This document shows positions 1,204 to 41,717 of a DNA stretch of 64,000 nucleotides, one piece after another (the first letter of the stretch is position 1; each line of letters starts with the position of its first letter). The DNA comes from Escherichia phage ES12. The notes beneath the pieces are model-generated. The model was given only the letters and a program-made list of their open reading frames with translations, ran no database searches and was not told where the DNA came from. The position numbers were made by a program, and so were the translations under genes. The stretch is taken from sequence record MN508614.1; one strand, given 5' to 3'.

Positions 1204-1677
1204 TTATTTGAACGATTTAACGTACTGAATAGAACCCTTGCTATTCACAAAGGCAATTTTACCATTTTTATTATACATGGTAGCAGTACGCTGATAACCA
1301 TAGGTTTGTTTACCAGATTGATAACCAACTAATGCAAAATTATCTTCACCCATTTTATTCTGTTTAGCGCGAATGCGTTCATGACCATGTGCCATAAGAA
1401 CCTTAGCATCACCAGTTGCAATGGATCGACGAGTTTTTTCATCTTCAACTGCATTAACAAAGTCGTCAAATGAATCAAATTTAGCATGAGATTTATTATA
1501 CAATTTTCCATCTACTGCATAATTATATCCCTGTACATCCATCTCAACTTCTGTACCATCATCCAATACAGCAGTAATTTTTTGACCTTTTTTAAATTTC
1601 AAAAGATCAGTAAAAGATTCAGCAATAATTTGAGAATTAATAGCTGCTTCAGTGATAAATTCTTGATATGTTTTCAT
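1204..1677 (-). CDS. Internal-protein-like head-packaged protein with N-terminal capsid targeting sequence MKTYQEFITEA
   Basis: 157-aa ORF, AGGA RBS before ATG at 1677; N-terminal decapeptide matches T4 internal protein CTS consensus MKTYQEFIAE (recalled). Confidence 0.7.
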   Translation of the reverse strand: MKTYQEFITEAAINSQIIAESFTDLLKFKKGQKITAVLDDGTEVEMDVQGYNYAVDGKLYNKSHAKFDSFDDFVNAVEDEKTRRSIATGDAKVLMAHGHERIRAKQNKMGEDNFALVGYQSGKQTYGYQRTATMYNKNGKIAFVNSKGSIQYVKSFK

Positions 1678-4983: not shown

Positions 4984-5577
4984 TTATTTCAGAGAATTAA
5001 TATATTCCTGAACATCGGCAGAGGTAGTTTCAACCCCAGAAATATTACCATTAAAGGTTTCAACTCGAGCAAGAGTATCTTCAATATCAACCTTAGTCAG
5101 TGCTGCAATTTCAACTACATCATCAGCAGTACTAATTCCAAGGGCATTCGCGGCGCGAGTTTCACGGATATATTCCAATTTAACTGCAAGTTCTTGGCGA
5201 GCATCATCTAACTCAACTACTTTCTTGGCGATTTCAATTCGCATTTCAGCATAACCATCAGCTTTAGTAGTCAACTGCTCAGCTGTTCGACGATATAGTA
5301 AACCAAGTTTAGCATGCATTGTTACATCTTGACCTTCCGAAAGGAGCTTGCGAATTTCACGCTCTTTTGATTCGGCCTGCTTATTCTTTTCGACAATAAG
5401 TTCACGAATACGCTTTTCTTCATTAATAGATTTAACAGAAGCAGTTTTTAGATCTTTAATCTTATCAAGTAGTTTTGCTGCCGCAGCAGTATACTGTTCT
5501 TCAACAGATAGATTTTTAGCCATAGCAGAACCAAGTTTAGTGCGAATAAACTCAACAATTTTCTTCAGTGTGTTCAT
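4984..5577 (-). CDS. Coiled-coil protein, possibly PspA/IM30-like
   Basis: 197-aa ORF, AGGAAA RBS, own early promoter; heptad-rich sequence with DTLARV segment. Confidence 0.7.
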
Positions 5578-5621
5578 AACATTTCCTTTAGTTAATTAAG
5601 GGTTTTATAATCCGTGGGAGT

Positions 5622-5651
5622 ATTATACTCTACTCCCAAGAGTTTGTAAAC
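5622..5651 (-). promoter_or_regulatory. T4-type early promoter (-35 GTTTAC, 18-nt spacer, -10 TATAAT) within a stem-loop (PeSL-like)
   Basis: Minus strand reads GTTTAC-aaactcttgggagtagag-TATAAT; inverted repeat gggagta/tactccc brackets the -10. Confidence 0.55.
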
Positions 5652-5984
5652 TTATTCTTCGTCCAATTCATCAATAAATTTATCGATACTATTATTAATA
5701 GACTCATCGATGATTAACAAAGCATCATCATCCATAATATTAATATTTTCTAAAGCATCAATATAAGCTTGATTGACTATAGACCATGCCCTTTGAAAAT
5801 ATGGGACTTCATCATCAGGACTGAACCAACGTACACCTTCAAAGATACGTTTGGCATAATCTAACACCCATTGTACAGGCATGTTTTGAGAACGTTCGTT
5901 AAACTCTTTAAAGTCCTTAGATTCAAAAAGCTCTTCAGGATAATAATTTCTATTACAAAAATCTTTACTAAAGTTACGTTTCAT
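5652..5984 (-). CDS. Hypothetical protein with acidic C-terminus
   Basis: 110-aa ORF preceded by early promoter. Confidence 0.6.
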   Translation of the reverse strand: MKRNFSKDFCNRNYYPEELFESKDFKEFNERSQNMPVQWVLDYAKRIFEGVRWFSPDDEVPYFQRAWSIVNQAYIDALENINIMDDDALLIIDESINNSIDKFIDELDEE

Positions 5985-6010
5985 AATGTTCTCCTCAAAG
6001 TTATAGGCTC

Positions 6011-6040
6011 ATAATATCTCAATCATGAGCCTGTGTAAAC
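6011..6040 (-). promoter_or_regulatory. T4-type early promoter within stem-loop (PeSL-like)
   Basis: Minus strand GTTTAC-18 nt-TATTAT; inverted repeat aggctcat/atgagcct. Confidence 0.55.
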
Positions 6041-6316
6041 TTATTTCATATTATTGAAATATTCTTCTGCGATTTCGTCGTTATCATGGTAAACTTTAGA
6101 AGACAGTTTAACATAACCTTCAGCAGTGAACATGTTAATCACAACCTTTACAGTATACCACTGACCGTCTTCATTACCCATTACTGCATAAGTTTCAAAC
6201 ATCGGATGGTCAGGACCGATAACTTTAATATCATTCACCGTACGACCAAAATCTTCTGAAACACATTTCATAAAGAAGTTGAACAGTTCACCGTAATTAT
6301 CCATTTCATTCTCCAA
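6041..6316 (-). CDS. Hypothetical protein
   Basis: 91-aa ORF preceded by early promoter. Confidence 0.6.
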   Translation of the reverse strand: MENEMDNYGELFNFFMKCVSEDFGRTVNDIKVIGPDHPMFETYAVMGNEDGQWYTVKVVINMFTAEGYVKLSSKVYHDNDEIAEEYFNNMK

Positions 6317-6347
6317 GTTGTTTTCTATATCAGTAGTTGATAGTTGT

Positions 6348-6377
6348 ATAGTACCATAGAAGAACAGTCTTGTAAAC
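6348..6377 (-). promoter_or_regulatory. T4-type early promoter
   Basis: Minus strand GTTTAC-18 nt-TACTAT, preceded by TTTCACAAAACT upstream element shared with other copies. Confidence 0.55.
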
Positions 6378-6514
6378 AGTTTTGTGAAAAAATTTTTAAA
6401 AAGTTTTGGGGAATTCTAGGGCAGGGAGTGGAAATCAAAGGATAGGATAATATATTATAAAGGATAGAAACTAAATGATGCCTAGAGAGGCCCGGAAAGG
6501 CCTAGATACCAAAA

Positions 6515-6538
6515 AGCCCCGACCAAAAGGTTGGGGCT
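6515..6538 (-). terminator. Rho-independent terminator (minus strand)
   Basis: agccccaacc-uuuu-ggucggggcu hairpin followed by UUUUUGG on the minus strand, just after the stop at 6546. Confidence 0.6.
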
Positions 6539-6545
6539 AAGAATG

Positions 6546-7019
6546 TTATTTGATTTGTTTAGCAGACCAAATGCGGTCTTTAATAATTTTTTGGATGTCT
6601 TCAACATACTCTAGGTCATGAGCATGTGGATTATCTTTGAAACTATAAGCACGGGCTAACTTTTGGCCTTCGGTTTTGATTACTAAAAGCTCTTTAAGGA
6701 TAGCTTCATATTTAGCGATAATTCCTTTAACGATATTTTTTTCTTGTGCCGCTTTAGGATCTGCTTTAGGAGCAGGTTTACCAGAAGCCTTTGCAAAAGC
6801 AGCGCCAGTAGCAACTAAACTTTTCCAGGCCATACTAACTGCATTTCCCGTAAATCCTTCCGCTTTCATGTCGCGTGCAAACTGGAATCGTGATTCATCA
6901 GAAGCATCTTTATAGGAATATTTACCCGCGGCAATGGCAGCTTTTGCAACAGCTTGAATTTCGGTGCTAGATGCTTCATTTAACACCGCTTCATTTAAAA
7001 ATTGAGTATATGATTTCAT
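6546..7019 (-). CDS. Internal-protein-like protein with CTS-like N-terminus MKSYTQFLNEA; Ala/Lys-rich
   Basis: Internal ATG at 7019 with AGGAAA RBS; the ORF-track N-terminal extension to 7196 crosses a terminator and structured RNA region and is rejected. Confidence 0.65.
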   Translation of the reverse strand: MKSYTQFLNEAVLNEASSTEIQAVAKAAIAAGKYSYKDASDESRFQFARDMKAEGFTGNAVSMAWKSLVATGAAFAKASGKPAPKADPKAAQEKNIVKGIIAKYEAILKELLVIKTEGQKLARAYSFKDNPHAHDLEYVEDIQKIIKDRIWSAKQIK

Positions 7020-7057
7020 CTTATTTCCTGTTTTAATTTGTAGATTTAATATACTAA

Positions 7058-7065
7058 TATTTATA
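7058..7065 (-). promoter_or_regulatory. T4-type late promoter box TATAAATA upstream of the 6546..7019 gene
   Basis: Reverse complement of plus tatttata, about 39 nt upstream of the ATG. Confidence 0.45.
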
Positions 7066-7071
7066 CCAAAA

Positions 7072-7095
7072 AGCCCCAACCTTTCGGTCGGGGCT
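7072..7095 (-). terminator. Rho-independent terminator (minus strand); inverted copy of the 6515..6538 hairpin
   Basis: agccccgacc-gaaa-gguuggggcu followed by UUUUUGG on minus strand. Confidence 0.6.
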
Positions 7096-7099
7096 AAGC

Positions 7100-7401
7100 C
7101 TTGCGGCAACCTTGTCGGGGTTCCACCTGCTAAGGCAAGTGTTTGTACGAAACGCCGGGATTCGAACCCGGTTATTAAGTAGTTGACGCTACTCAATATT
7201 TTTAAAAGGCCATATCTCGACCATATCCGAACGTTCCGTCAAAAACGCTACTCGGCTTACGGCAAAGATATTTCCTCGAATCGATAATTCGGTGCGCCGT
7301 TTCAGCTGTGATAGTAAAGAACCAGAACATAGTAAAACTGTGGGAGGAACTATACTCCAGGGAACATCAGTCCGACGACTTACCGGTAGCGACCCGGTTT
7401 C
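7100..7401 (-). ncRNA. Candidate stable structured RNA(s) downstream of the tRNA cluster, with a tRNA-like T-arm
   Basis: No credible ORF; T-arm-like ccgggttcgaatcccgg plus a 7-bp acceptor-like pairing; sits between tRNA cluster and a terminator. Confidence 0.3.
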
Positions 7402-7752
7402 TTAATATTCTTTTAAAGCATCAATCTGTTCACGGCGTTTACGCCATAAATCAATTGCTTCATACGCAGATTCAGCATTTCGAATTGGACGGCATTTATA
7501 TAAAGACTTGTGATTTTGATATTGCGTAGATAACGGAATTTTATCTAAAAGGTCTTTATGTTCAAAGTATTCATAACCATCTAAGCCAAATGAACGATTT
7601 TTAAGAAATTGCCAATGACCGTATTCGTTTTCGACATAAACATAATCTGCGTGCTGATAAAGCAAATTAATTACACGTTCAGAAATAACAGTGTCATTAT
7701 GATTAAAATAGAATGTTAAATCATGAACTACTAAATAAACATTACCTTTCAT
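7402..7752 (-). CDS. Hypothetical protein
   Basis: 116-aa ORF, GAGGAA RBS, start 17 nt downstream of tRNA-Arg 3' end. Confidence 0.55.
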   Translation of the reverse strand: MKGNVYLVVHDLTFYFNHNDTVISERVINLLYQHADYVYVENEYGHWQFLKNRSFGLDGYEYFEHKDLLDKIPLSTQYQNHKSLYKCRPIRNAESAYEAIDLWRKRREQIDALKEY

Positions 7753-7768
7753 ATTTTCCTCACTTAAT

Positions 7769-7844
7769 TGGTCGAGGCAGTAGGGATCGAACCTACGACC
7801 TAGGACTTAGAAGGTCCTTGCTCTTCCTTCTGAGCTATGCCTCG
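7769..7844 (-). tRNA. tRNA-Arg (anticodon UCU)
   Basis: Hand-folded cloverleaf: acceptor CGAGGCA/UGCCUCG, anticodon loop CUUCUAA, T-loop GGTTCGATCC, CCA encoded. Confidence 0.85.
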
Positions 7845-7848
7845 GATT

Positions 7849-7923
7849 TGGCGGACGTGATAGGATTCGAACCTATAACCAATCGCTTAACAGGCGATCG
7901 CTCTGCCATTGAGCTACACATCC
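7849..7923 (-). tRNA. tRNA-Asn (anticodon GUU)
   Basis: Acceptor GGATGTG/CACGTCC, anticodon stem ATCGC/GCGAT, loop CTGTTAA, T-loop TTCGAAT, discriminator G, CCA encoded. Confidence 0.8.
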
Positions 7924-7927
7924 AAAT

Positions 7928-8014
7928 TGGTGGGGAGTGATGGAGTCGAACCACCCGAGTCGCAATGACAATGGATTTACAGTCCACACCGCTACCTCTA
8001 CGGGATAACTCCCC
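7928..8014 (-). tRNA. tRNA-Tyr (anticodon GUA), long variable arm
   Basis: Acceptor GGGGAGT/ACTCCCC, anticodon loop CTGTAAA, 15-nt variable arm, T-loop TTCGACT, CCA encoded. Confidence 0.8.
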
Positions 8015-8023
8015 AAATTAATT

Positions 8024-8098
8024 TGGTGGCCCTGGGTGGAATTGAACCACCATCTGGCGATTATGAGTCGCTTGCTTGAACCTTCCAGCTACAGGGCC
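8024..8098 (-). tRNA. tRNA with CAU anticodon (Ile2 or Met; Ile expected by analogy with T4)
   Basis: Acceptor GGCCCTG/CAGGGCC, anticodon loop CTCATAA, T-loop TTCAATT, CCA encoded. Confidence 0.75.
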
Positions 8099-8099
8099 T

Positions 8100-8175
8100 T
8101 GGTGCTGATTGACGGAATCGAACCGCCGACCTTCTCATTACAAGTGAGTTGCTCTACCTACTGAGCTAAATCAGC
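8100..8175 (-). tRNA. tRNA-Thr (anticodon UGU)
   Basis: Acceptor GCTGATT/AATCAGC, D-arm GCTCAGTAGGTAGAGC, anticodon loop CTTGTAA, T-loop TTCGATT, CCA encoded. Confidence 0.85.
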
Positions 8176-8180
8176 AAAAC

Positions 8181-8270
8181 TGGCGGAGGCGATAGGATTT
8201 GAACCTATGAGTCGCCGGAGCGACTGCCGGTTTTCAAGACCGGTGCATTAAACCACTCTGCCACGCCTCC
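8181..8270 (-). tRNA. tRNA-Ser (anticodon UGA), type II
   Basis: Acceptor GGAGGCG/CGCCTCC, anticodon stem CCGGT/ACCGG, loop CTTGAAA, long variable arm, CCA encoded. Confidence 0.85.
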
Positions 8271-8272
8271 AG

Positions 8273-8346
8273 TCTCCATACAAGGATTTGAACCTTGGAC
8301 CTCCTGATCCCAAATCAGGCGCTCTACCAAACTGAGCTACACGGAG
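8273..8346 (-). tRNA. tRNA-Pro (anticodon UGG), CCA not encoded
   Basis: Acceptor CTCCGTG/TATGGAG (two G-U pairs), anticodon loop TTTGGGA, T-loop TTCAAAT; 3' end followed by CTG not CCA. Confidence 0.8.
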
Positions 8347-8356
8347 TAAATTAAAT

Positions 8357-8430
<74 letters not shown>

Positions 8431-8435
8431 AAATT

Positions 8436-8522
8436 TGGTGCGAGAAGTGGGACTCGAACCCACAAGGAAATCATTCCGCAGCATTTTAAGTGCTGTGCCT
8501 TTACCAATTTGACCATTCTCGC
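8436..8522 (-). tRNA. tRNA-Leu (anticodon UAA), type II
   Basis: Acceptor GCGAGAA/TTCTCGC, anticodon stem CAGCA/TGCTG, loop CTTAAAA, long variable arm, T-loop TTCGAGT, CCA encoded. Confidence 0.85.
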
Positions 8523-8528
8523 GCTATA

Positions 8529-9137
8529 TTATTTATTACGTGAAAAAGAATGTTCTATCAATTCTGGACACTTTCGTTCTATCCATTTTCTAGCTTTTTG
8601 TGGGCTTATACCTATTATTTTAGCAGCTTTACTAACCCATCCAAATTTAGAATAATCGATTTTAACTAATTCTTCGTAAATTTCATCAGTTAAAATCTTT
8701 TCATTAATATTTACCAGTAAATGATATAATTTATTATCATTAGCAATTTTAATGAATCTTTTATAGTTTCCGCCTTTACTTAAACCTAATGAAGTAATTG
8801 CAGATGATATAGTAGTCGAATTTAATAGTGCGTTTAAAATTTCTTCATCACTAACATTATAACGCTTTCTATTATTTTTAATATTTTTACCAGCAAAAGT
8901 ATCAGTTTGCGAATGGCAATTTGGACATAATAATCTTAAATTTGATTTAAGATGATTTTTGTTATTTCCATCAATATGGTCTAATTGTAGAACAATATGC
9001 TTATTTTGCCATTTTGAAATTTTACAAATTGCACACTCATATGGAAAAATATTTTCTTTTATTATTTTGTCTTTTAGCTTTCCTGTACTAAAATTTGGGT
9101 GTTTTCCTTCAAAAATTTCAGCTAATTTAGTATCCAT
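8529..9137 (-). CDS. HNH-family homing-endonuclease-like protein
   Basis: HNH motif CAICK...LQLDHIDGNNKNHLKSNLRLLCPNCHSQTD; ORF-track start at 9161 is TTG, first ATG at 9137; stop 7 nt from tRNA-Leu 5' end. Confidence 0.8.
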   Translation of the reverse strand: MDTKLAEIFEGKHPNFSTGKLKDKIIKENIFPYECAICKISKWQNKHIVLQLDHIDGNNKNHLKSNLRLLCPNCHSQTDTFAGKNIKNNRKRYNVSDEEILNALLNSTTISSAITSLGLSKGGNYKRFIKIANDNKLYHLLVNINEKILTDEIYEELVKIDYSKFGWVSKAAKIIGISPQKARKWIERKCPELIEHSFSRNK

Positions 9138-9236
9138 AATATGATTCCCAATTATTAACAAAGGCTCTTAAGCAAGAACCCTTGATGATAGAGGGTATTA
9201 ATCAGTGCGATATGAGTTAATAATAACAAATAATTC

Positions 9237-9752
9237 TTAAAGCAAATTAAACATTTTAACGGTCGGCAAAACAATTTCTTCTTCTATATAAGAGTATTTA
9301 ACACTCTCAACTACACGCAAAAAATCATAATCATAATACTCAGAAGCATTACCTAAAATATTAATAAGTCCTTCAAGCACTTTATTACCATTCACAAAAA
9401 ATAAGTCAAATACACGTTCTTCATCTTCTTCAGATTTATTACCAAGATCAACTTCTATGCGAAAGACCTTTTTAATGAATTCTGGATAAATCTGGTCTGA
9501 GAACAGTCCTTCAACCAAGTATTCATAAATAAAAAGAGATTGCTCGCTGAACAAACCATTACCGCAATAGCGCTCAATTTTAGTACTAGAATATCTGCTT
9601 TTAAATTTCTTTAAAAGATACTGAAATTGTAAGATTTCATGCTCTTCTACGCCAAACAGTGTTTTAGTTTTATAGTTGTCACCATCATTTTCCCAGGTAG
9701 TGACATCAATTACGTAGCCCTGCGGAATTGTAGTACCTAAACAAATATTCAT
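9237..9752 (-). CDS. Hypothetical protein
   Basis: 171-aa ORF with ATG start, tightly packed with neighbours. Confidence 0.55.
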   Translation of the reverse strand: MNICLGTTIPQGYVIDVTTWENDGDNYKTKTLFGVEEHEILQFQYLLKKFKSRYSSTKIERYCGNGLFSEQSLFIYEYLVEGLFSDQIYPEFIKKVFRIEVDLGNKSEEDEERVFDLFFVNGNKVLEGLINILGNASEYYDYDFLRVVESVKYSYIEEEIVLPTVKMFNLL

Positions 9753-9755
9753 TTT

Positions 9756-10052
9756 TCACCATGCTGCGTTAATGTAAGTATATTTAATACATTCAAGACC
9801 CAAAGGATTCTTGAAAATATCATATTCAAGAAGACCTTTTTCTGTTTCAATAAAGAAATCAAAATTTACTGTATTAAATTTACGGTCTTCCTTCACTAAT
9901 TTAACTTGTGAAGATGAACGGTCAATGTAAACCTTTTCAACTTCAAAACATGTTAAAATGCCATAATCATCAATCAAGGCTTTAGCTGCTTCTTGATCAT
10001 ATTTATATCCATTTTCAATGGATGATACTTTAGCATAAAGAATCATTATCAA
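9756..10052 (-). CDS. Hypothetical protein
   Basis: 98-aa ORF; start overlaps upstream stop (ATGA). Confidence 0.5.
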   Translation of the reverse strand: MIMILYAKVSSIENGYKYDQEAAKALIDDYGILTCFEVEKVYIDRSSSQVKLVKEDRKFNTVNFDFFIETEKGLLEYDIFKNPLGLECIKYTYINAAW

Positions 10053-10447
10053 CCTTCATCAACAACAGTATGCGTATTAGCATTTACGATTTGCCACCAA
10101 TCAAAGCGATTAGAATCCATCGGTTTGTTTTCATTTTCTTTGATAATGTCACGGAGTTCATCTTCAGAGAATGCTTTAGCGATTAAATCGGTATACCCAC
10201 CACGTGGATAATAATTATCACCTGCAAACAAAAGGAAATTTACCTTCCCGGAAGGAACATACGCTTCCTTAGGATACTTGTTTCCTGCGTGGTCAACCAC
10301 TTCAATATAACGGTAAGGAATATCGGTTCTTTCAACCCATTGCCATGCCGCTGCAGGGGAATCGAAAGCATCTACACCTAAACGATTATCTTCATCTTTA
10401 GACGGATTATTTTCGTAATCCGCATATACATAATATTCAACGTTCAT
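10049..10447 (-). CDS. Hypothetical protein
   Basis: 132-aa ORF; start overlaps upstream stop (TAATG). Confidence 0.55.
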   Translation of the reverse strand: MNVEYYVYADYENNPSKDEDNRLGVDAFDSPAAAWQWVERTDIPYRYIEVVDHAGNKYPKEAYVPSGKVNFLLFAGDNYYPRGGYTDLIAKAFSEDELRDIIKENENKPMDSNRFDWWQIVNANTHTVVDEG

Positions 10448-10632
10448 TATTCACCTTTAGAAATTTTATCCATAACAATAGCAATTAAACCAATTAAAAA
10501 TGCTACTACAAGTGAAAACACATTTTCTGCTGTAGTCAATAATCCACATATAAATCCAACAAACATTGAAAAACTAAAAGCGGAAGCAGAAATTGCAATA
10601 GCAACATTTCGAATTAATTCACAACGTTTCAT
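10447..10632 (-). CDS. Small hydrophobic membrane protein
   Basis: 61-aa ORF, GAGGAG RBS, own early promoter; two hydrophobic segments. Confidence 0.5.
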   Translation of the reverse strand: MKRCELIRNVAIAISASAFSFSMFVGFICGLLTTAENVFSLVVAFLIGLIAIVMDKISKGE

Positions 10633-10654
10633 TTTATTCTCCTCAGTAGTAGAT

Positions 10655-10692
10655 AGGGTAATAGTATCACTACCCTATCTAAAAGTAAACTT
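10655..10692 (-). promoter_or_regulatory. PeSL-like early promoter plus stem-loop module
   Basis: Minus strand GTTTAC-18 nt-TACTAT; inverted repeat gatagggta/taccctatc around conserved core aatagtatcac. Confidence 0.55.
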
Positions 10693-10924
10693 ATTTTTTA
10701 CGAAAAATTGATTTATTTTCTGCTGCCCATTTTTCAATAACTGCAGCAGGACCAGTAACAACAATTTTATCACCGTAATCTTCTGCGGCGAGTTGACCGA
10801 AATTATCTAATGCATCACGAAGAACTCCATGAGGCATTTCACCCATTTTATCTTTCTTGCCAGTGTAAATAAACTCAACTTTTACATCAGCAGTTTCAGC
10901 AATAAATTCTTGGTAAGTTTTCAT
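10691..10924 (-). CDS. Small internal-protein-like protein with exact CTS MKTYQEFIAE
   Basis: Start set at Met5 of the ORF-track ORF (GGAAA RBS); 77 aa; N-terminus MKTYQEFIAETADVK. Confidence 0.65.
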   Translation of the reverse strand: MKTYQEFIAETADVKVEFIYTGKKDKMGEMPHGVLRDALDNFGQLAAEDYGDKIVVTGPAAVIEKWAAENKSIFRKK

Positions 10925-10952
10925 TTTGATTTCCATTTGGTTTTGTTTTGAT

Positions 10953-10990
10953 AGGGTAATAGTATCACAACTAAAACCCTATGTAAACAA
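10953..10990 (-). promoter_or_regulatory. PeSL-like early promoter plus stem-loop module
   Basis: Minus strand GTTTAC-18 nt-TACTAT with inverted repeat atagggt/accctat; core aatagtatcac. Confidence 0.55.
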
Positions 10991-11000
10991 CTTTGTGAAA

Positions 11001-11258
11001 TTATTTTAAATCTTCTAATCGTTTCTTCATCTTAGAACCGTTCTTAGCGATTTCGCCTGCATCAGAGCATAATGCTAAAAGCGCTTTAACTTTAGTTTGG
11101 TCTCCTTTAAAAGATGAAGGATCAACAGCAGCAGCAAGTTCTTTAATACGAGAGAAAAGACGCTCAGCTTCAGCTAAAGCCATTCCAAGCTTTACTTCCA
11201 TACCATGAGAAGATTCAGTAATAGTAGTTTTTGTAGCAAACTCTTTGAAAGTTTTCAT
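11001..11258 (-). CDS. Small protein with CTS-like N-terminus MKTFKEFATK (I-T-E site at residues 13-15)
   Basis: 85-aa ORF, AGGAAA RBS, own early promoter. Confidence 0.55.
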   Translation of the reverse strand: MKTFKEFATKTTITESSHGMEVKLGMALAEAERLFSRIKELAAAVDPSSFKGDQTKVKALLALCSDAGEIAKNGSKMKKRLEDLK

Positions 11259-11282
11259 TTTTATTTTCCTAATTAATTTTGA

Positions 11283-11320
11283 TGAGGTAATAGTATCACT
11301 ACCTCATCAGTATGTAAACA
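11283..11320 (-). promoter_or_regulatory. PeSL-like early promoter plus stem-loop module
   Basis: Minus strand GTTTAC-18 nt-TACTAT; inverted repeat gatgaggta/tacctcatc; core aatagtatcac. Confidence 0.55.
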
Positions 11321-11331
11321 ACTTTGTGAAA

Positions 11332-12028
<697 letters not shown>

Positions 12029-39568: not shown

Positions 39569-39569
<1 letters not shown>

Positions 39570-39814
39570 TGGAAGGTTTAATTGAAGCTATTAAATCAAA
39601 CGACCTCGTAGCCGCTCGTAAATTATTTGCTGAAGCCATGGCTGCAAGAACGATTGATTTAATTAAAGAAGAAAAAATCGCTATCGCTCGTAATTTCTTA
39701 ATCGAAGGTGAAGAACCTGAAGACGAGGATGAAGATGAAGATGATGACGAAGATAGCGATGATAAAGACGACAAAAAAGACAAAGACTCTGACGAAGACG
39801 AGGATGATGAATAA
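39569..39814 (+). CDS. 67: gp67 prohead core protein with acidic C-terminal tail
   Basis: 81 aa with [29 protein letters not shown] tail, T4 synteny. Confidence 0.9.
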
Positions 39815-40239
39815 TGCTTCTGATCCCTGAAACTCATGAATTAGTTCTCGAGAATGTCGAAGCACTTATTCCTGAAGCACAGGGTCGCTTTGACGAATTG
39901 TCTTCTGCTTTAAATAAAGACGATATAAATACAATTGTCGAGAATATGCTTGATGATGAAACTGATTTAGCGGTTGCATTAGCTTCTATTAATGAAAATA
40001 TGCCGTTAAATGAATTCATCGTTAAACATGTTTCCGCTCGTGGTGAAATTACTCGCACTAAAGACCGCAAAACGCGTGAACGTAATGCATTTCAAACCAC
40101 TGGGCTGTCTAAAGCAAAACGTAGACAAATTGCTCGTAAAGCTACCAAAACGAAGATTGCCAATCCAGCAGGTCAATCTCGTGCTCAGCGTAAGCGTAAA
40201 AAAGCTCTTAAACGCCGTAAAGCATTAGGATTAAGCTAA
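39814..40239 (+). CDS. 68: gp68 prohead core protein
   Basis: 141 aa, basic C-terminus, T4 synteny. Confidence 0.9.
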
Positions 40240-40877
40240 TGAATGAACCCCAATTACTAATTGAAACTTGGGGTCAACCTGGCGAAATTATTGATGGCGT
40301 ACCAATGCTTGAATCTCATGATGGAAAAGACTTAGGTTTAAAACCGGGTTTATACATCGAAGGAATATTCATGCAAGCGGAAGTCGTCAATAGAAATAAA
40401 CGTCTTTATCCAAAACGTATATTAGAAAAAGCGGTAAAAGACTATATTAATGAGCAAGTTTTAACTAAACAAGCTCTCGGAGAATTAAATCATCCTCCAC
40501 GCGCTAATGTTGACCCGATGCAAGCCGCTATCATTATAGAAGATATGTGGTGGAAAGGAAATGACGTATACGGACGAGCTCGTGTTATTGAAGGTGACCA
40601 TGGTCCTGGAGATAAATTAGCAGCTAATATTCGTGCCGGATGGATTCCAGGAGTTTCTTCTCGTGGATTAGGTTCATTGACTGACACAAATAAAGGTTAT
40701 CGTATCGTAAATGAAGGATTCAAATTAACTGTAGGTGTTGATGCAGTATGGGGTCCAAGTGCTCCAGATGCATGGGTAACTCCTAAGGAAATTACCGAAT
40801 CACAGACGGCGGAAGCCGATACAAGTGCCGATGACGCCTATATGGCTCTCGCAGAGGCCATGAAAAAAGCGTTATAA
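40239..40877 (+). CDS. 21: gp21 prohead protease
   Basis: 212 aa, T4 synteny and size. Confidence 0.95.
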   Translation: MNEPQLLIETWGQPGEIIDGVPMLESHDGKDLGLKPGLYIEGIFMQAEVVNRNKRLYPKRILEKAVKDYINEQVLTKQALGELNHPPRANVDPMQAAIIIEDMWWKGNDVYGRARVIEGDHGPGDKLAANIRAGWIPGVSSRGLGSLTDTNKGYRIVNEGFKLTVGVDAVWGPSAPDAWVTPKEITESQTAEADTSADDAYMALAEAMKKAL

Positions 40878-40907: not shown

Positions 40908-41717
40908 ATGCTTAAAGAACAACTGATTGCTGAAGCGCAAAAAATTGATGCTTCCGTTGCTCTTGATAGTATTTTCGAATCAGTTAATATTTCTCCGGAA
41001 GCAAAAGAAACTTTCGGCACTGTATTCGAAGCTACCGTCAAGCAGCATGCCGTTAAATTAGCTGAATCTCATATCGCTAAAATTGCTGAAAAAGCAGAAG
41101 AAGAAGTAGAAAAAAATAAAGAAGAAGCCGAAGAAAAAGCTGAGAAGAAAATCGCTGAGCAAGCTTCTAAATTCATCGACCATCTTGCGAAAGAATGGCT
41201 CGCCGAAAATAAATTAGCAGTTGATAAAGGCATCAAAGCCGAACTGTTTGAATCCATGCTTGGTGGATTAAAAGAGCTCTTTGTTGAACACAACGTTGTT
41301 GTTCCAGAAGAATCAGTTGATGTTGTAGCTGAAATGGAAGAAGAGCTGCAAGAACATAAAGAAGAATCAGCTCGTCTGTTCGAAGAACTCAATATGCGCG
41401 ACGCATATATCAATTATGTGCAGCGTGAAGTGGCATTGAGCGAAAGTACTAAAGATCTGACTGAGTCTCAAAAAGAAAAAGTCTCTGCTCTGGTCGAAGG
41501 TATGGATTATTCAGATGCATTCTCAAGTAAATTGAGTGCCATCGTAGAAATGGTGAAGAAGTCTAATAAAGATGAAAGCACTATTACTGAGAGTATAAAT
41601 ACTCCTGATACTGAAGCAGCCGGACTGAATTTCGTCACTGAAGCTGTAGAAGATAAAACTGCACCTGGTGCAGAAGATATTGTAAGTGTATATGCGAAAG
41701 TCGCATCTCGTTTCTAA
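40908..41717 (+). CDS. 22: gp22 prohead scaffolding core protein
   Basis: 269 aa, acidic coiled-coil, T4 synteny. Confidence 0.95.
   Translation: MLKEQLIAEAQKIDASVALDSIFESVNISPEAKETFGTVFEATVKQHAVKLAESHIAKIAEKAEEEVEKNKEEAEEKAEKKIAEQASKFIDHLAKEWLAENKLAVDKGIKAELFESMLGGLKELFVEHNVVVPEESVDVVAEMEEELQEHKEESARLFEELNMRDAYINYVQREVALSESTKDLTESQKEKVSALVEGMDYSDAFSSKLSAIVEMVKKSNKDESTITESINTPDTEAAGLNFVTEAVEDKTAPGAEDIVSVYAKVASRF

Follow-up and report, generated by a model that had tools for sequence, protein, structure and literature searches.

The window analyzed here is a 64,000-nucleotide stretch of the Escherichia phage ES12 genome (sequence record MN508614.1), and the element in question is a gene for a protein of 157 amino acids (aa), which lies between the homologue of the stable RNA gene rnaC and the early promoter of the e.8 homologue. 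The minus strand encodes all genes around this locus. Nine tRNA genes and the homologues of rnaD and rnaC precede the 157-aa gene in the order of transcription, in agreement with the original prediction made for this DNA, which had placed it downstream of the tRNA cluster; rnaC is followed by a hairpin (H1), a TATAAATA box, the gene itself, a second hairpin (H2), and then the e.8 early promoter. The region is 100% identical to that of Escherichia phage ES26 (MN508618, Tequatrovirus) and 99% identical to that of phage vB_EcoM_C2-3 (C2-3). Owing to the complete identity with ES26, the form of the hairpins and of the cassette present in the window is referred to as the ES26 form. Coordinates are given in Table 1.

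Table 1. Features of the 157-aa gene locus, followed by neighboring and related genes of the window. Slashes mark predicted cleavage sites; ORF, open reading frame; CDS, coding sequence.
Feature	Position	Strand	Remarks
CDS, 157 aa	6546..7019 (stop included)	-	PHROG 2280, candidate for an injected internal protein; ATG 7019, stop 6546
Leader codons 1-15, MKSYTQFLNE/AVLNE/A	6975..7019	-	two L-x-E sites of prohead-protease type
Shine-Dalgarno sequence AGGAAA	7024..7029	-	upstream of ATG 7019
T4-type late promoter box TATAAATA	7058..7065	-	intergenic, 38 nt upstream of ATG
Hairpin H1, AGCCCCGACC-GAAA-GGTTGGGGCT	7072..7095	-	followed by T5 (T-run listed at 7068-7071); left cassette boundary
Hairpin H2, AGCCCCAACC-TTTT-GGTCGGGGCT	6515..6538	-	followed by T5; putative terminator of the gene itself, flipped stem-loop
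36-nt direct repeat, upstream copy	7063..7098	-	flanks TTAGCCCC..GGGGCTTTTTGGTAT
36-nt direct repeat, downstream copy	6506..6541	-	right boundary of 557-bp indel
tRNA genes (n = 9)	8522..7769	-	first in transcription order
116-aa ORF	7402..7752	-	between tRNA-Arg and rnaD homologue
rnaD and rnaC homologues	~7125..7400	-	nearly identical to T4 stable RNAs
e.8 homologue CDS	6041..6316	-	preceded by early promoter; e.7 and e.6 homologues come next
210-aa ORF, HNH-like Cys/His motifs	8529..9161	-	directly upstream of tRNA-Leu
Leader-bearing gene, 157 aa, MKTYQEFITEAA...	1204..1677	-	99% identity to IpIV of Yersinia phage PST; Pfam DUF7412
Leader-bearing gene, 77 aa, MKTYQEFIAETA...	10691..10924	-	ipI locus
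gp21 homologue, prohead core serine protease	40239..40877	+	Peptidase_S77, E 1.5e-111
gp22 scaffold	40908..41717		T4_CASP match
gp67	39569..39814		GP67 match

The predicted gene, starting with MKSYTQFLNEA, was found at its proposed place on the minus strand, and its product is Ala/Lys-rich as foreseen (17.8% Ala, 13.4% Lys, pI 9.4). The frame is under purifying selection, with dN/dS values of 0.05 to 0.16 in comparisons with eight relatives (dS up to 1.2), and its Shine-Dalgarno (SD) sequence AGGAAA (once AGGAAC) is nearly constant in most of the Escherichia/Shigella-type homologous loci compared, locus L004 being different. The 157-aa frame is contained in an open frame of 216 aa that starts with TTG at position 7196; if the latter specified the true product, the alternative raised in the original prediction itself, the protein would have no N-terminal leader. 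The frame is indeed open from 7196 in the window, in ES26, and in some further close relatives, but the extension crosses the rnaC homologue, hairpin H1, and the late promoter box. Moreover, the frame upstream of the ATG is closed after 3 to 16 codons in nine related loci (L004, L005, L007, L008, L010, L012, L013, L016, and L017), all of which retain the ATG and the SD sequence, and in T4 the upstream sequence is present while the gene is absent. Because of its closure in the nine loci, the 216-aa frame was rejected, and the chance that it represents the product is negligible; together with the geneless upstream sequence of T4 and the purifying selection, this closure identifies the 157-aa product as that of a real gene. 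Truncated alleles of 93 to 97 aa occur in several phages, namely, at locus L016 (281..574) of T4_ev240, a laboratory-evolved T4-like recombinant, and in the cluster members P0026, P0040, and P0042.

The N terminus of the 157-aa protein resembles the leader, or capsid-targeting sequence (CTS), of the T4 internal proteins (Ips). According to a review that summarizes the work of Mullaney and Black, IPIII is packaged by virtue of its first 10 residues alone; residues 4 and 7 are the main determinants of targeting, and residues 8 and 10 those of processing. The protein of the window has Y4, F7, L8, and E10, i.e., it matches at the very positions reported for targeting and processing of IPIII. Besides L8-N9-E10, a second site, L13-N14-E15, is present, each of them being followed by Ala, and the mature protein is predicted to begin with Ala11 (AVLNEASSTEIQAVAK) or Ala16 (ASSTEIQAVAK). 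A six-frame translation of the 64 kb contains three matches to the leader motif (0.013 expected), and the other two belong to Ip-type genes at classical loci. One of these (1204..1677) is located directly downstream of denV; the window contains no ipII or ipIII homologue between e and denV, an order unlike that of T4. Homologues of the 157-aa family in phages of other genera (Klebsiella and Yersinia phages) keep the pattern M-x-x-(Y/F)-x-x-F-L-x-E with different codons, and leaders such as MKFKEFLAE/A, MLEYSEFLKELFCE/A, MLKFNEFLAE/G, and MKSFSSFLNE/G are found among the homologues. The preservation of the amino-acid pattern despite codon differences suggests that the leader is selected as protein. 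The same leader is also present on proteins with non-homologous bodies encoded at the same site, namely, the 187-aa protein of DalCa, the 205-aa gp135 of JS98, and a 189-aa protein of fHe-Yen9-01, with MKTYNEFLNESVLNEA on JS98 gp135 and the nearly identical MKTYNEFLNESVLTEA on a member of the 157-aa family; by its occurrence on non-homologous proteins at one site, the leader behaves as a portable functional module.

Such portability could also be read differently, with the 157-aa protein staying outside the capsid as a late cytoplasmic protein and the likeness of the leaders reflecting a recombination or translation-initiation module shared by the 5' ends of shuffled cassettes. These 5' ends are clearly shuffled between genes, and the support for packaging is indirect, the virion protein list of phage fD1 described below holding many non-structural proteins. 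On the other hand, the conservation is seen in the amino acids, with synonymous codon differences across genera, exactly the four functionally mapped residues are kept, and elsewhere in the window the motif is confined to Ip genes. We therefore regard a cytoplasmic protein as very unlikely.

Late expression had been proposed from the promoter box, which is present at the predicted position. By the sequence criterion for T4 late genes, an intergenic TATAAATA shortly upstream of the start codon, the 157-aa gene would be classified as late. In the majority of the homologous loci the exact box precedes the ATG by 26 to 40 nt; the remaining cases have near-matches or concern the second gene of a tandem pair. 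The minus strand yielded no sigma-70-like site between positions 7020 and 7100. In the entire window TATAAATA occurs 23 times compared with 10.3 expected copies, a number reached in none of 100 shuffles. A single box could be a chance occurrence, and its conservation across loci adds weight to the assignment.

The predicted mature protein has a mass of 15.5 to 16 kDa and a pI of 9.4 to 9.5. The fold model, with a predicted local distance difference test (pLDDT) score of 74, features a poorly defined leader, a three-helix N-terminal domain (residues 18 to 71) containing the invariant GKYSYK motif, and a Pro/Ala/Lys linker with a C-terminal helical hairpin. A 12-nt tandem duplication (6751..6774; GCTTTAGGATCT / GCTTTAGGAGCA on the plus strand) encodes the repeated PKA motif of the linker. 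The sequence profiles of Pfam, NCBIfam, and PDB yielded no family for the protein; its only family match is phrog_2280 of PHROGs, which carries no functional assignment, and a profile search of 1.84 billion representatives returned only 13 proteins, those traced being from T4-like phages. BLASTP comparisons with T4 IPII and IPIII gave nothing beyond chance. All database names and listed records consulted label the family hypothetical, and it may appear in Repoila et al. 1994 under another name; a literature search for Ip4 to Ip7 returned papers on inositol phosphates only.

An orthologue covered by proteomics is g140 of Yersinia phage fD1 (phiD1), which is 98.1% identical to the protein of the window and was flagged as particle-associated in an LC-MS/MS analysis of purified virions (dataset PXD026812). 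This flag shows translation and co-purification of g140, which falls short of encapsidation. The fPS-2/65/90 paper contains no proteome, and the HIDEN-SEQ preprint contains nothing on the 157-aa gene.

Both hairpins fit the criterion for intrinsic terminators, as they are G+C-rich stem-loops with a U-run immediately behind them on the transcribed strand; the predicted U-runs on the coding strand are T5 in both cases. H1 comprises 10 base pairs (RNA ΔG of -20.3 kcal/mol) and was picked up by a terminator scan, whereas H2 (-16.2 kcal/mol, with one A·C mismatch on the coding strand) is below the rule of the simple scanner and was missed. In the KAW1E185 record H1 is annotated as a putative terminator, and in that of DalCa terminators are annotated downstream of each cassette gene only. 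Over H1 and some 330 nt of upstream sequence the window is nearly identical to T4, which has an identical, single hairpin downstream of rnaC (species 1 RNA). In T4 this hairpin serves as the operon terminator. There it is directly followed by the e.8 promoter region, whereas in the ES26 form the late promoter, the gene, and the second hairpin copy come after it. By position, H1 looks like the terminator of the tRNA/rnaD/rnaC unit; the idea that the upstream hairpin is a private insulator of the 157-aa gene had to be given up, as its position suits that terminator and T4 possesses the hairpin without the gene.

A comparison with T4 revealed how the cassette is bounded. The rnaC-e.8 interval of T4 contains exactly one hairpin (...TTAGCCCCGACCGAAAGGTTGGGGCTTTTTGGTAT/CTAAGCC...), whose left flank matches that of H1 and whose right flank matches that of H2. 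Accordingly, the ES26 form carries 557 extra bases bounded by a repeat, the two 36-nt copies of which are 83% identical with a spacing of 557. The check suggested in the original prediction, whether the hairpins mark the edges of an indel, was thus positive, and its suggestion that T4 has no internal-protein gene at this position is borne out by the empty T4 site. The site of PST is empty as well. These comparisons suggest homologous recombination between the terminator repeats of approximately 36 bp as the route by which phages acquire and lose the cassette.

The 24-nt cores of H1 and H2 are inverted copies of each other (96% complementary in a repeat search) and are located at both ends of the 557-bp indel, as might be expected if a small mobile element had them as its terminal inverted repeats or if they formed a designed bidirectional insulator. 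However, the inversion is limited to the stem-loop, the flanks TTAGCCCC...GGGGCTTTTTGGTAT and both T-runs being direct. In the sampled relatives L001, L002, L004 to L006, L013, and L015, H2 has the same orientation as H1, of which it is a copy with the loop GAAA or AAAA, and the exact flipped H2 of the ES26 form is confined to 4 of 50,697 phage records (ES26, T4_ev240, and BCH953P4 twice). Furthermore, there is no transposase, and the other strand lacks a T-run, which excludes a bidirectional terminator. In view of the direct flanks, the direct hairpins of the relatives, and the rarity of the flipped form, a transposon-like element or an insulator was rejected, and we accord it only a minute probability. 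Of the earlier claim that the hairpins are inverted copies, the inversion of the cores stands, whereas the inversion represents a rare derived flip and not a design.

H2 of C2-3 (AGCCCCGACC-AAAA-GGTTGGGGCT) is the exact reverse complement of H2 of ES26, with identical flanks. The orientation in ES26 would result from a secondary flip of the quasi-palindromic stem-loop, presumably by strand switching within the quasi-palindrome. Two further flips, in a48 and KAW1E185, have a TTTC loop; since they derive from different variants, with a GAAA loop, flipping occurred more than once. A scan of IMG/VR for the flipped hairpin gave 0 matches, and a 28-mer of H1 with up to three mismatches is expected 0.00 times in shuffled sequences. 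The flip converts a G·U pair into an A·C mismatch on the mRNA, at a cost of about 3 kcal/mol, and shortens the longest stretch over which the two repeats are identical without interruption, from 22 to 15 bp (manual count). Its consequences are modest.

The occupancy of the site varies among relatives. The T4 empty site was used as query, and 60 records were sampled evenly down the ranking: approximately 6 were empty (including T4, RB7, Lv5cm, SHFML-11, and W143), approximately 25 had one cassette, and approximately 13 had two. A tblastn search recovered 511 phage records with the 157-aa gene and 165 with the 187-aa gene. The latter, which begins with MKTYAEFLTEAAK, forms a second cassette after the first in DalCa and many others; it is ended by a different hairpin and then reaches the same ...GGGCTTTTTGGTATCTAGG junction. 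In OE5505 the 187-aa neighbor gene is split. The truncated alleles of the 157-aa gene and this split neighbor are consistent with dispensability on laboratory hosts. At the same site, JS98 (L011, 2590..3880) has a 184-aa membrane-protein gene without leader and the leader-bearing 205-aa gp135, each cassette being preceded by GGCCCTTCC-GAAA-GGTTGGGCC, a T-run, and TATAAATA. Klebsiella phage KP01 also has its homologue after the tRNA cluster, with a hairpin, a T-run, and TATAAATA in front of the gene. Yersinia phage fHe-Yen9-01 (L023, 1880..3040) carries after its tRNA genes a tandem pair of leader-bearing genes, for a 189-aa relative of gp135 and a 178-aa relative of the window protein, behind one TATAAATA and with a terminator hairpin thereafter. 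A C-terminal domain containing TPDLY is common to the families of JS98 gp135 and the 157-aa protein.

The brackets of the cassette can be compared with the PeSLs, promoter-plus-stem-loop terminator motifs that are short and conserved and bracket accessory ORFs in hyperplastic regions; recombination between such repeats was proposed as the way in which they bring about insertion, deletion, and replacement (Arbiol et al. 2010; Comeau et al. 2014). As in PeSLs, repeated copies, here of the 36-nt direct repeat, flank an accessory ORF and coincide with indel boundaries, with states of zero, one, and two cassettes among relatives. Whereas a PeSL has a strong early promoter of the sigma-70 type, the order here is stem-loop, T-run, and then the late box TATAAATA, and the term "late promoter" is absent from the text of Arbiol et al. 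2010. The cassette brackets therefore work like PeSLs but, having a late instead of an early promoter, are not filed as such. The contrast also exists within the window, where the ipI-locus gene is flanked by early-promoter/stem-loop elements and the 157-aa gene by terminator and late promoter. Specifically, the 77-aa gene has PeSL-type motifs on both sides (10650..10990), with GTTTACA..TACTAT overlapping TAGGGT/ACCCTA stems.

Several features link the 157-aa protein to the T4 Ips. Alike are the N-terminal leader of about 10 residues, in which residues 4 and 7 are aromatic and the cleavage site is of the form (I/L)-x-E, the small size and basic character, the non-essential nature, the location in polymorphic regions, and the presence of the scaffold core and of the gp21 protease in the same genome. 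T4, PST, and RB7 lack the gene, which is thus polymorphic in addition to being small and basic, as is characteristic of Ip genes; judged by such sequence-level criteria, it would count as one. The protein differs from the T4 Ips in having no sequence similarity to them beyond the leader, in its locus between rnaC and e.8, where T4 has nothing, in the bipartite leader with LNE at positions 8 to 10 and 13 to 15, and in the late box being the sole promoter-like element upstream of the gene. Some Ips at classical loci likewise have a bipartite leader, e.g., MKTYQEFIAESILNE. With the Ips of other T-even phages (IpIV to IpVI of PST), the 157-aa gene shares the cassette-like organization, the conserved leader, and the variation in number and identity between phages. 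A 1994 study by Repoila and co-workers, to which the concept is dated, is said to have located the Ip genes of other T-even phages at two classical loci. The classical genes occupy the ipI and ipII/ipIII loci, whereas the 157-aa gene is situated at a third site.

Taken together, we consider it probable that the locus represents a self-contained Ip gene cassette, placed at the terminator downstream of the tRNA/rnaD/rnaC unit, whose product is packaged into the head, injected, and plausibly directed against host defense. The claim of a further late-expressed, head-packaged CTS protein receives support from the leader residues, the occurrence of the leader on non-homologous neighbors, the presence of the fD1 orthologue in virion preparations, and the empty site of T4, and head packaging of the 157-aa protein appears likely.

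A number of observations weigh against this interpretation. Positions 3, 5, 6, and 9 of the leader depart from the T4 consensus MKTYQEFIAE, and the mature part shows no similarity to T4 IPI, IPII, or IPIII. The box TATAAATA alone is a weak predictor, with approximately 10 chance copies expected per window. The particle-associated flag of fD1 is unspecific, as it covers 113 to 137 of 277 proteins; within g110 to g141 it was assigned to 11 of the 32 genes, including those for DenV, lysozyme, NudE, and an HNH endonuclease. The fold model matches only generic helical structures, which do not allow a host target to be inferred, and truncated alleles, such as that of 97 aa in T4_ev240, exist in some phages.

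The established concept of Ips is that of polymorphic genes with a conserved leader whose products are injected with the DNA, IPI being an anti-restriction protein. Work from 2025 showed that Ip2 and Ip3 also inhibit distinct GmrSD enzymes, each of Ip1 to Ip3 acting on one enzyme, and named two Ip loci; in Bas37, a further gene at the ipI locus counters type IV restriction of K-12. By analogy, an anti-restriction function of the 157-aa protein may be assumed. It could instead be packaged via its leader as a bulk structural or DNA-associated internal protein, serving charge neutralization, DNA condensation, or ejection rather than the inhibition of a defense system. This is rather unlikely in our view, because specific anti-restriction targets are now established for each of the three T4 Ips, the abundant and basic IPII and IPIII among them, and because dispensability and a patchy distribution, with truncated alleles and empty sites, are more in keeping with an accessory gene of an arms race than with a structural need.

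The course of events that we favor for the 157-aa protein as an injected Ip is as follows. Transcription of the upstream RNA genes would end at H1, and the late promoter immediately after the T-run would, as judged from the motif, restart transcription late, during prohead building. The N-terminal leader would carry the basic protein into the scaffolding core, where the prohead protease gp21 would cleave after Glu10 and/or Glu15. The gp21 homologue of the window, which also encodes gp22, gp67, and gp23, is the predicted leader-removing enzyme and would act in trans as a partner outside the cassette. The mature protein of approximately 15.5 to 16 kDa would remain in the head with the DNA, for which the orthologue proteomics offer partial support, and would be injected along with it. 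In analogy to T4 Ip1, Ip2, and Ip3, it might then neutralize a first-line host defense, e.g., a modification-dependent type IV restriction enzyme of the GmrSD type.

The surroundings of the locus show further differences between the phages. In T4, tRNA-Arg and rnaD are directly adjacent, and the 116-aa ORF between them in the window represents a further small insertion relative to T4, which is also found in C2-3, DalCa, and L004. The rnaD and rnaC homologues include the tRNA-like T-arm GGTTCGAATCCCGG; an Rfam search of positions 5500-11500 at permissive thresholds gave tRNAs and chance matches only, the hairpins and the rnaC/rnaD homologues being unmatched. The window has 9 tRNA genes compared with 11 in C2-3, whose tRNA-Gln and tRNA-His are unmatched anywhere in the window. 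The fD1 counterpart of the 210-aa ORF is annotated as HNH endonuclease, and C2-3 has tRNA-Gln at that place.

The Ip concept itself remains unchanged by these findings; what is new is a cassette of the Ip type at a polymorphic locus that would be the third of its kind, is unoccupied in T4 and PST, and is not usually counted among the Ip loci; the cassette probably encodes one more injected protein with a likely anti-defense role. As a broader proposal, which we put forward tentatively and would not yet call probable, the rnaC-e.8 site may be a third, hitherto unlisted internal-protein hotspot of T4-like phages, conserved from those of Escherichia to those of Klebsiella and Yersinia, where leader-bearing cargo of no fewer than three unrelated families (157, 187, and 205 aa) is shuffled via a terminator/late-promoter repeat, a late-gene counterpart of the PeSLs; the cargo would consist of injected inhibitors of host defense, e.g., of the GmrSD type, with targets distinct from those of Ip1 to Ip3. 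The locus would be missed by T4-centered studies because T4 has an empty site, and the 157-aa family, present in about 500 sequenced phages, and its neighbor cassette, present in about 165, are both labeled hypothetical in all names consulted. Since each T4 Ip disables one specific GmrSD-type enzyme and the Bas37 gene blocks type IV restriction of K-12, each further Ip is a candidate for a specific anti-defense activity and for a host-range determinant of therapeutic T4-like phages. The locus thus provides a short list of testable candidates for injected proteins and, with its hairpin, T-run, and late promoter, a cleanly defined natural insertion site for cargo genes.

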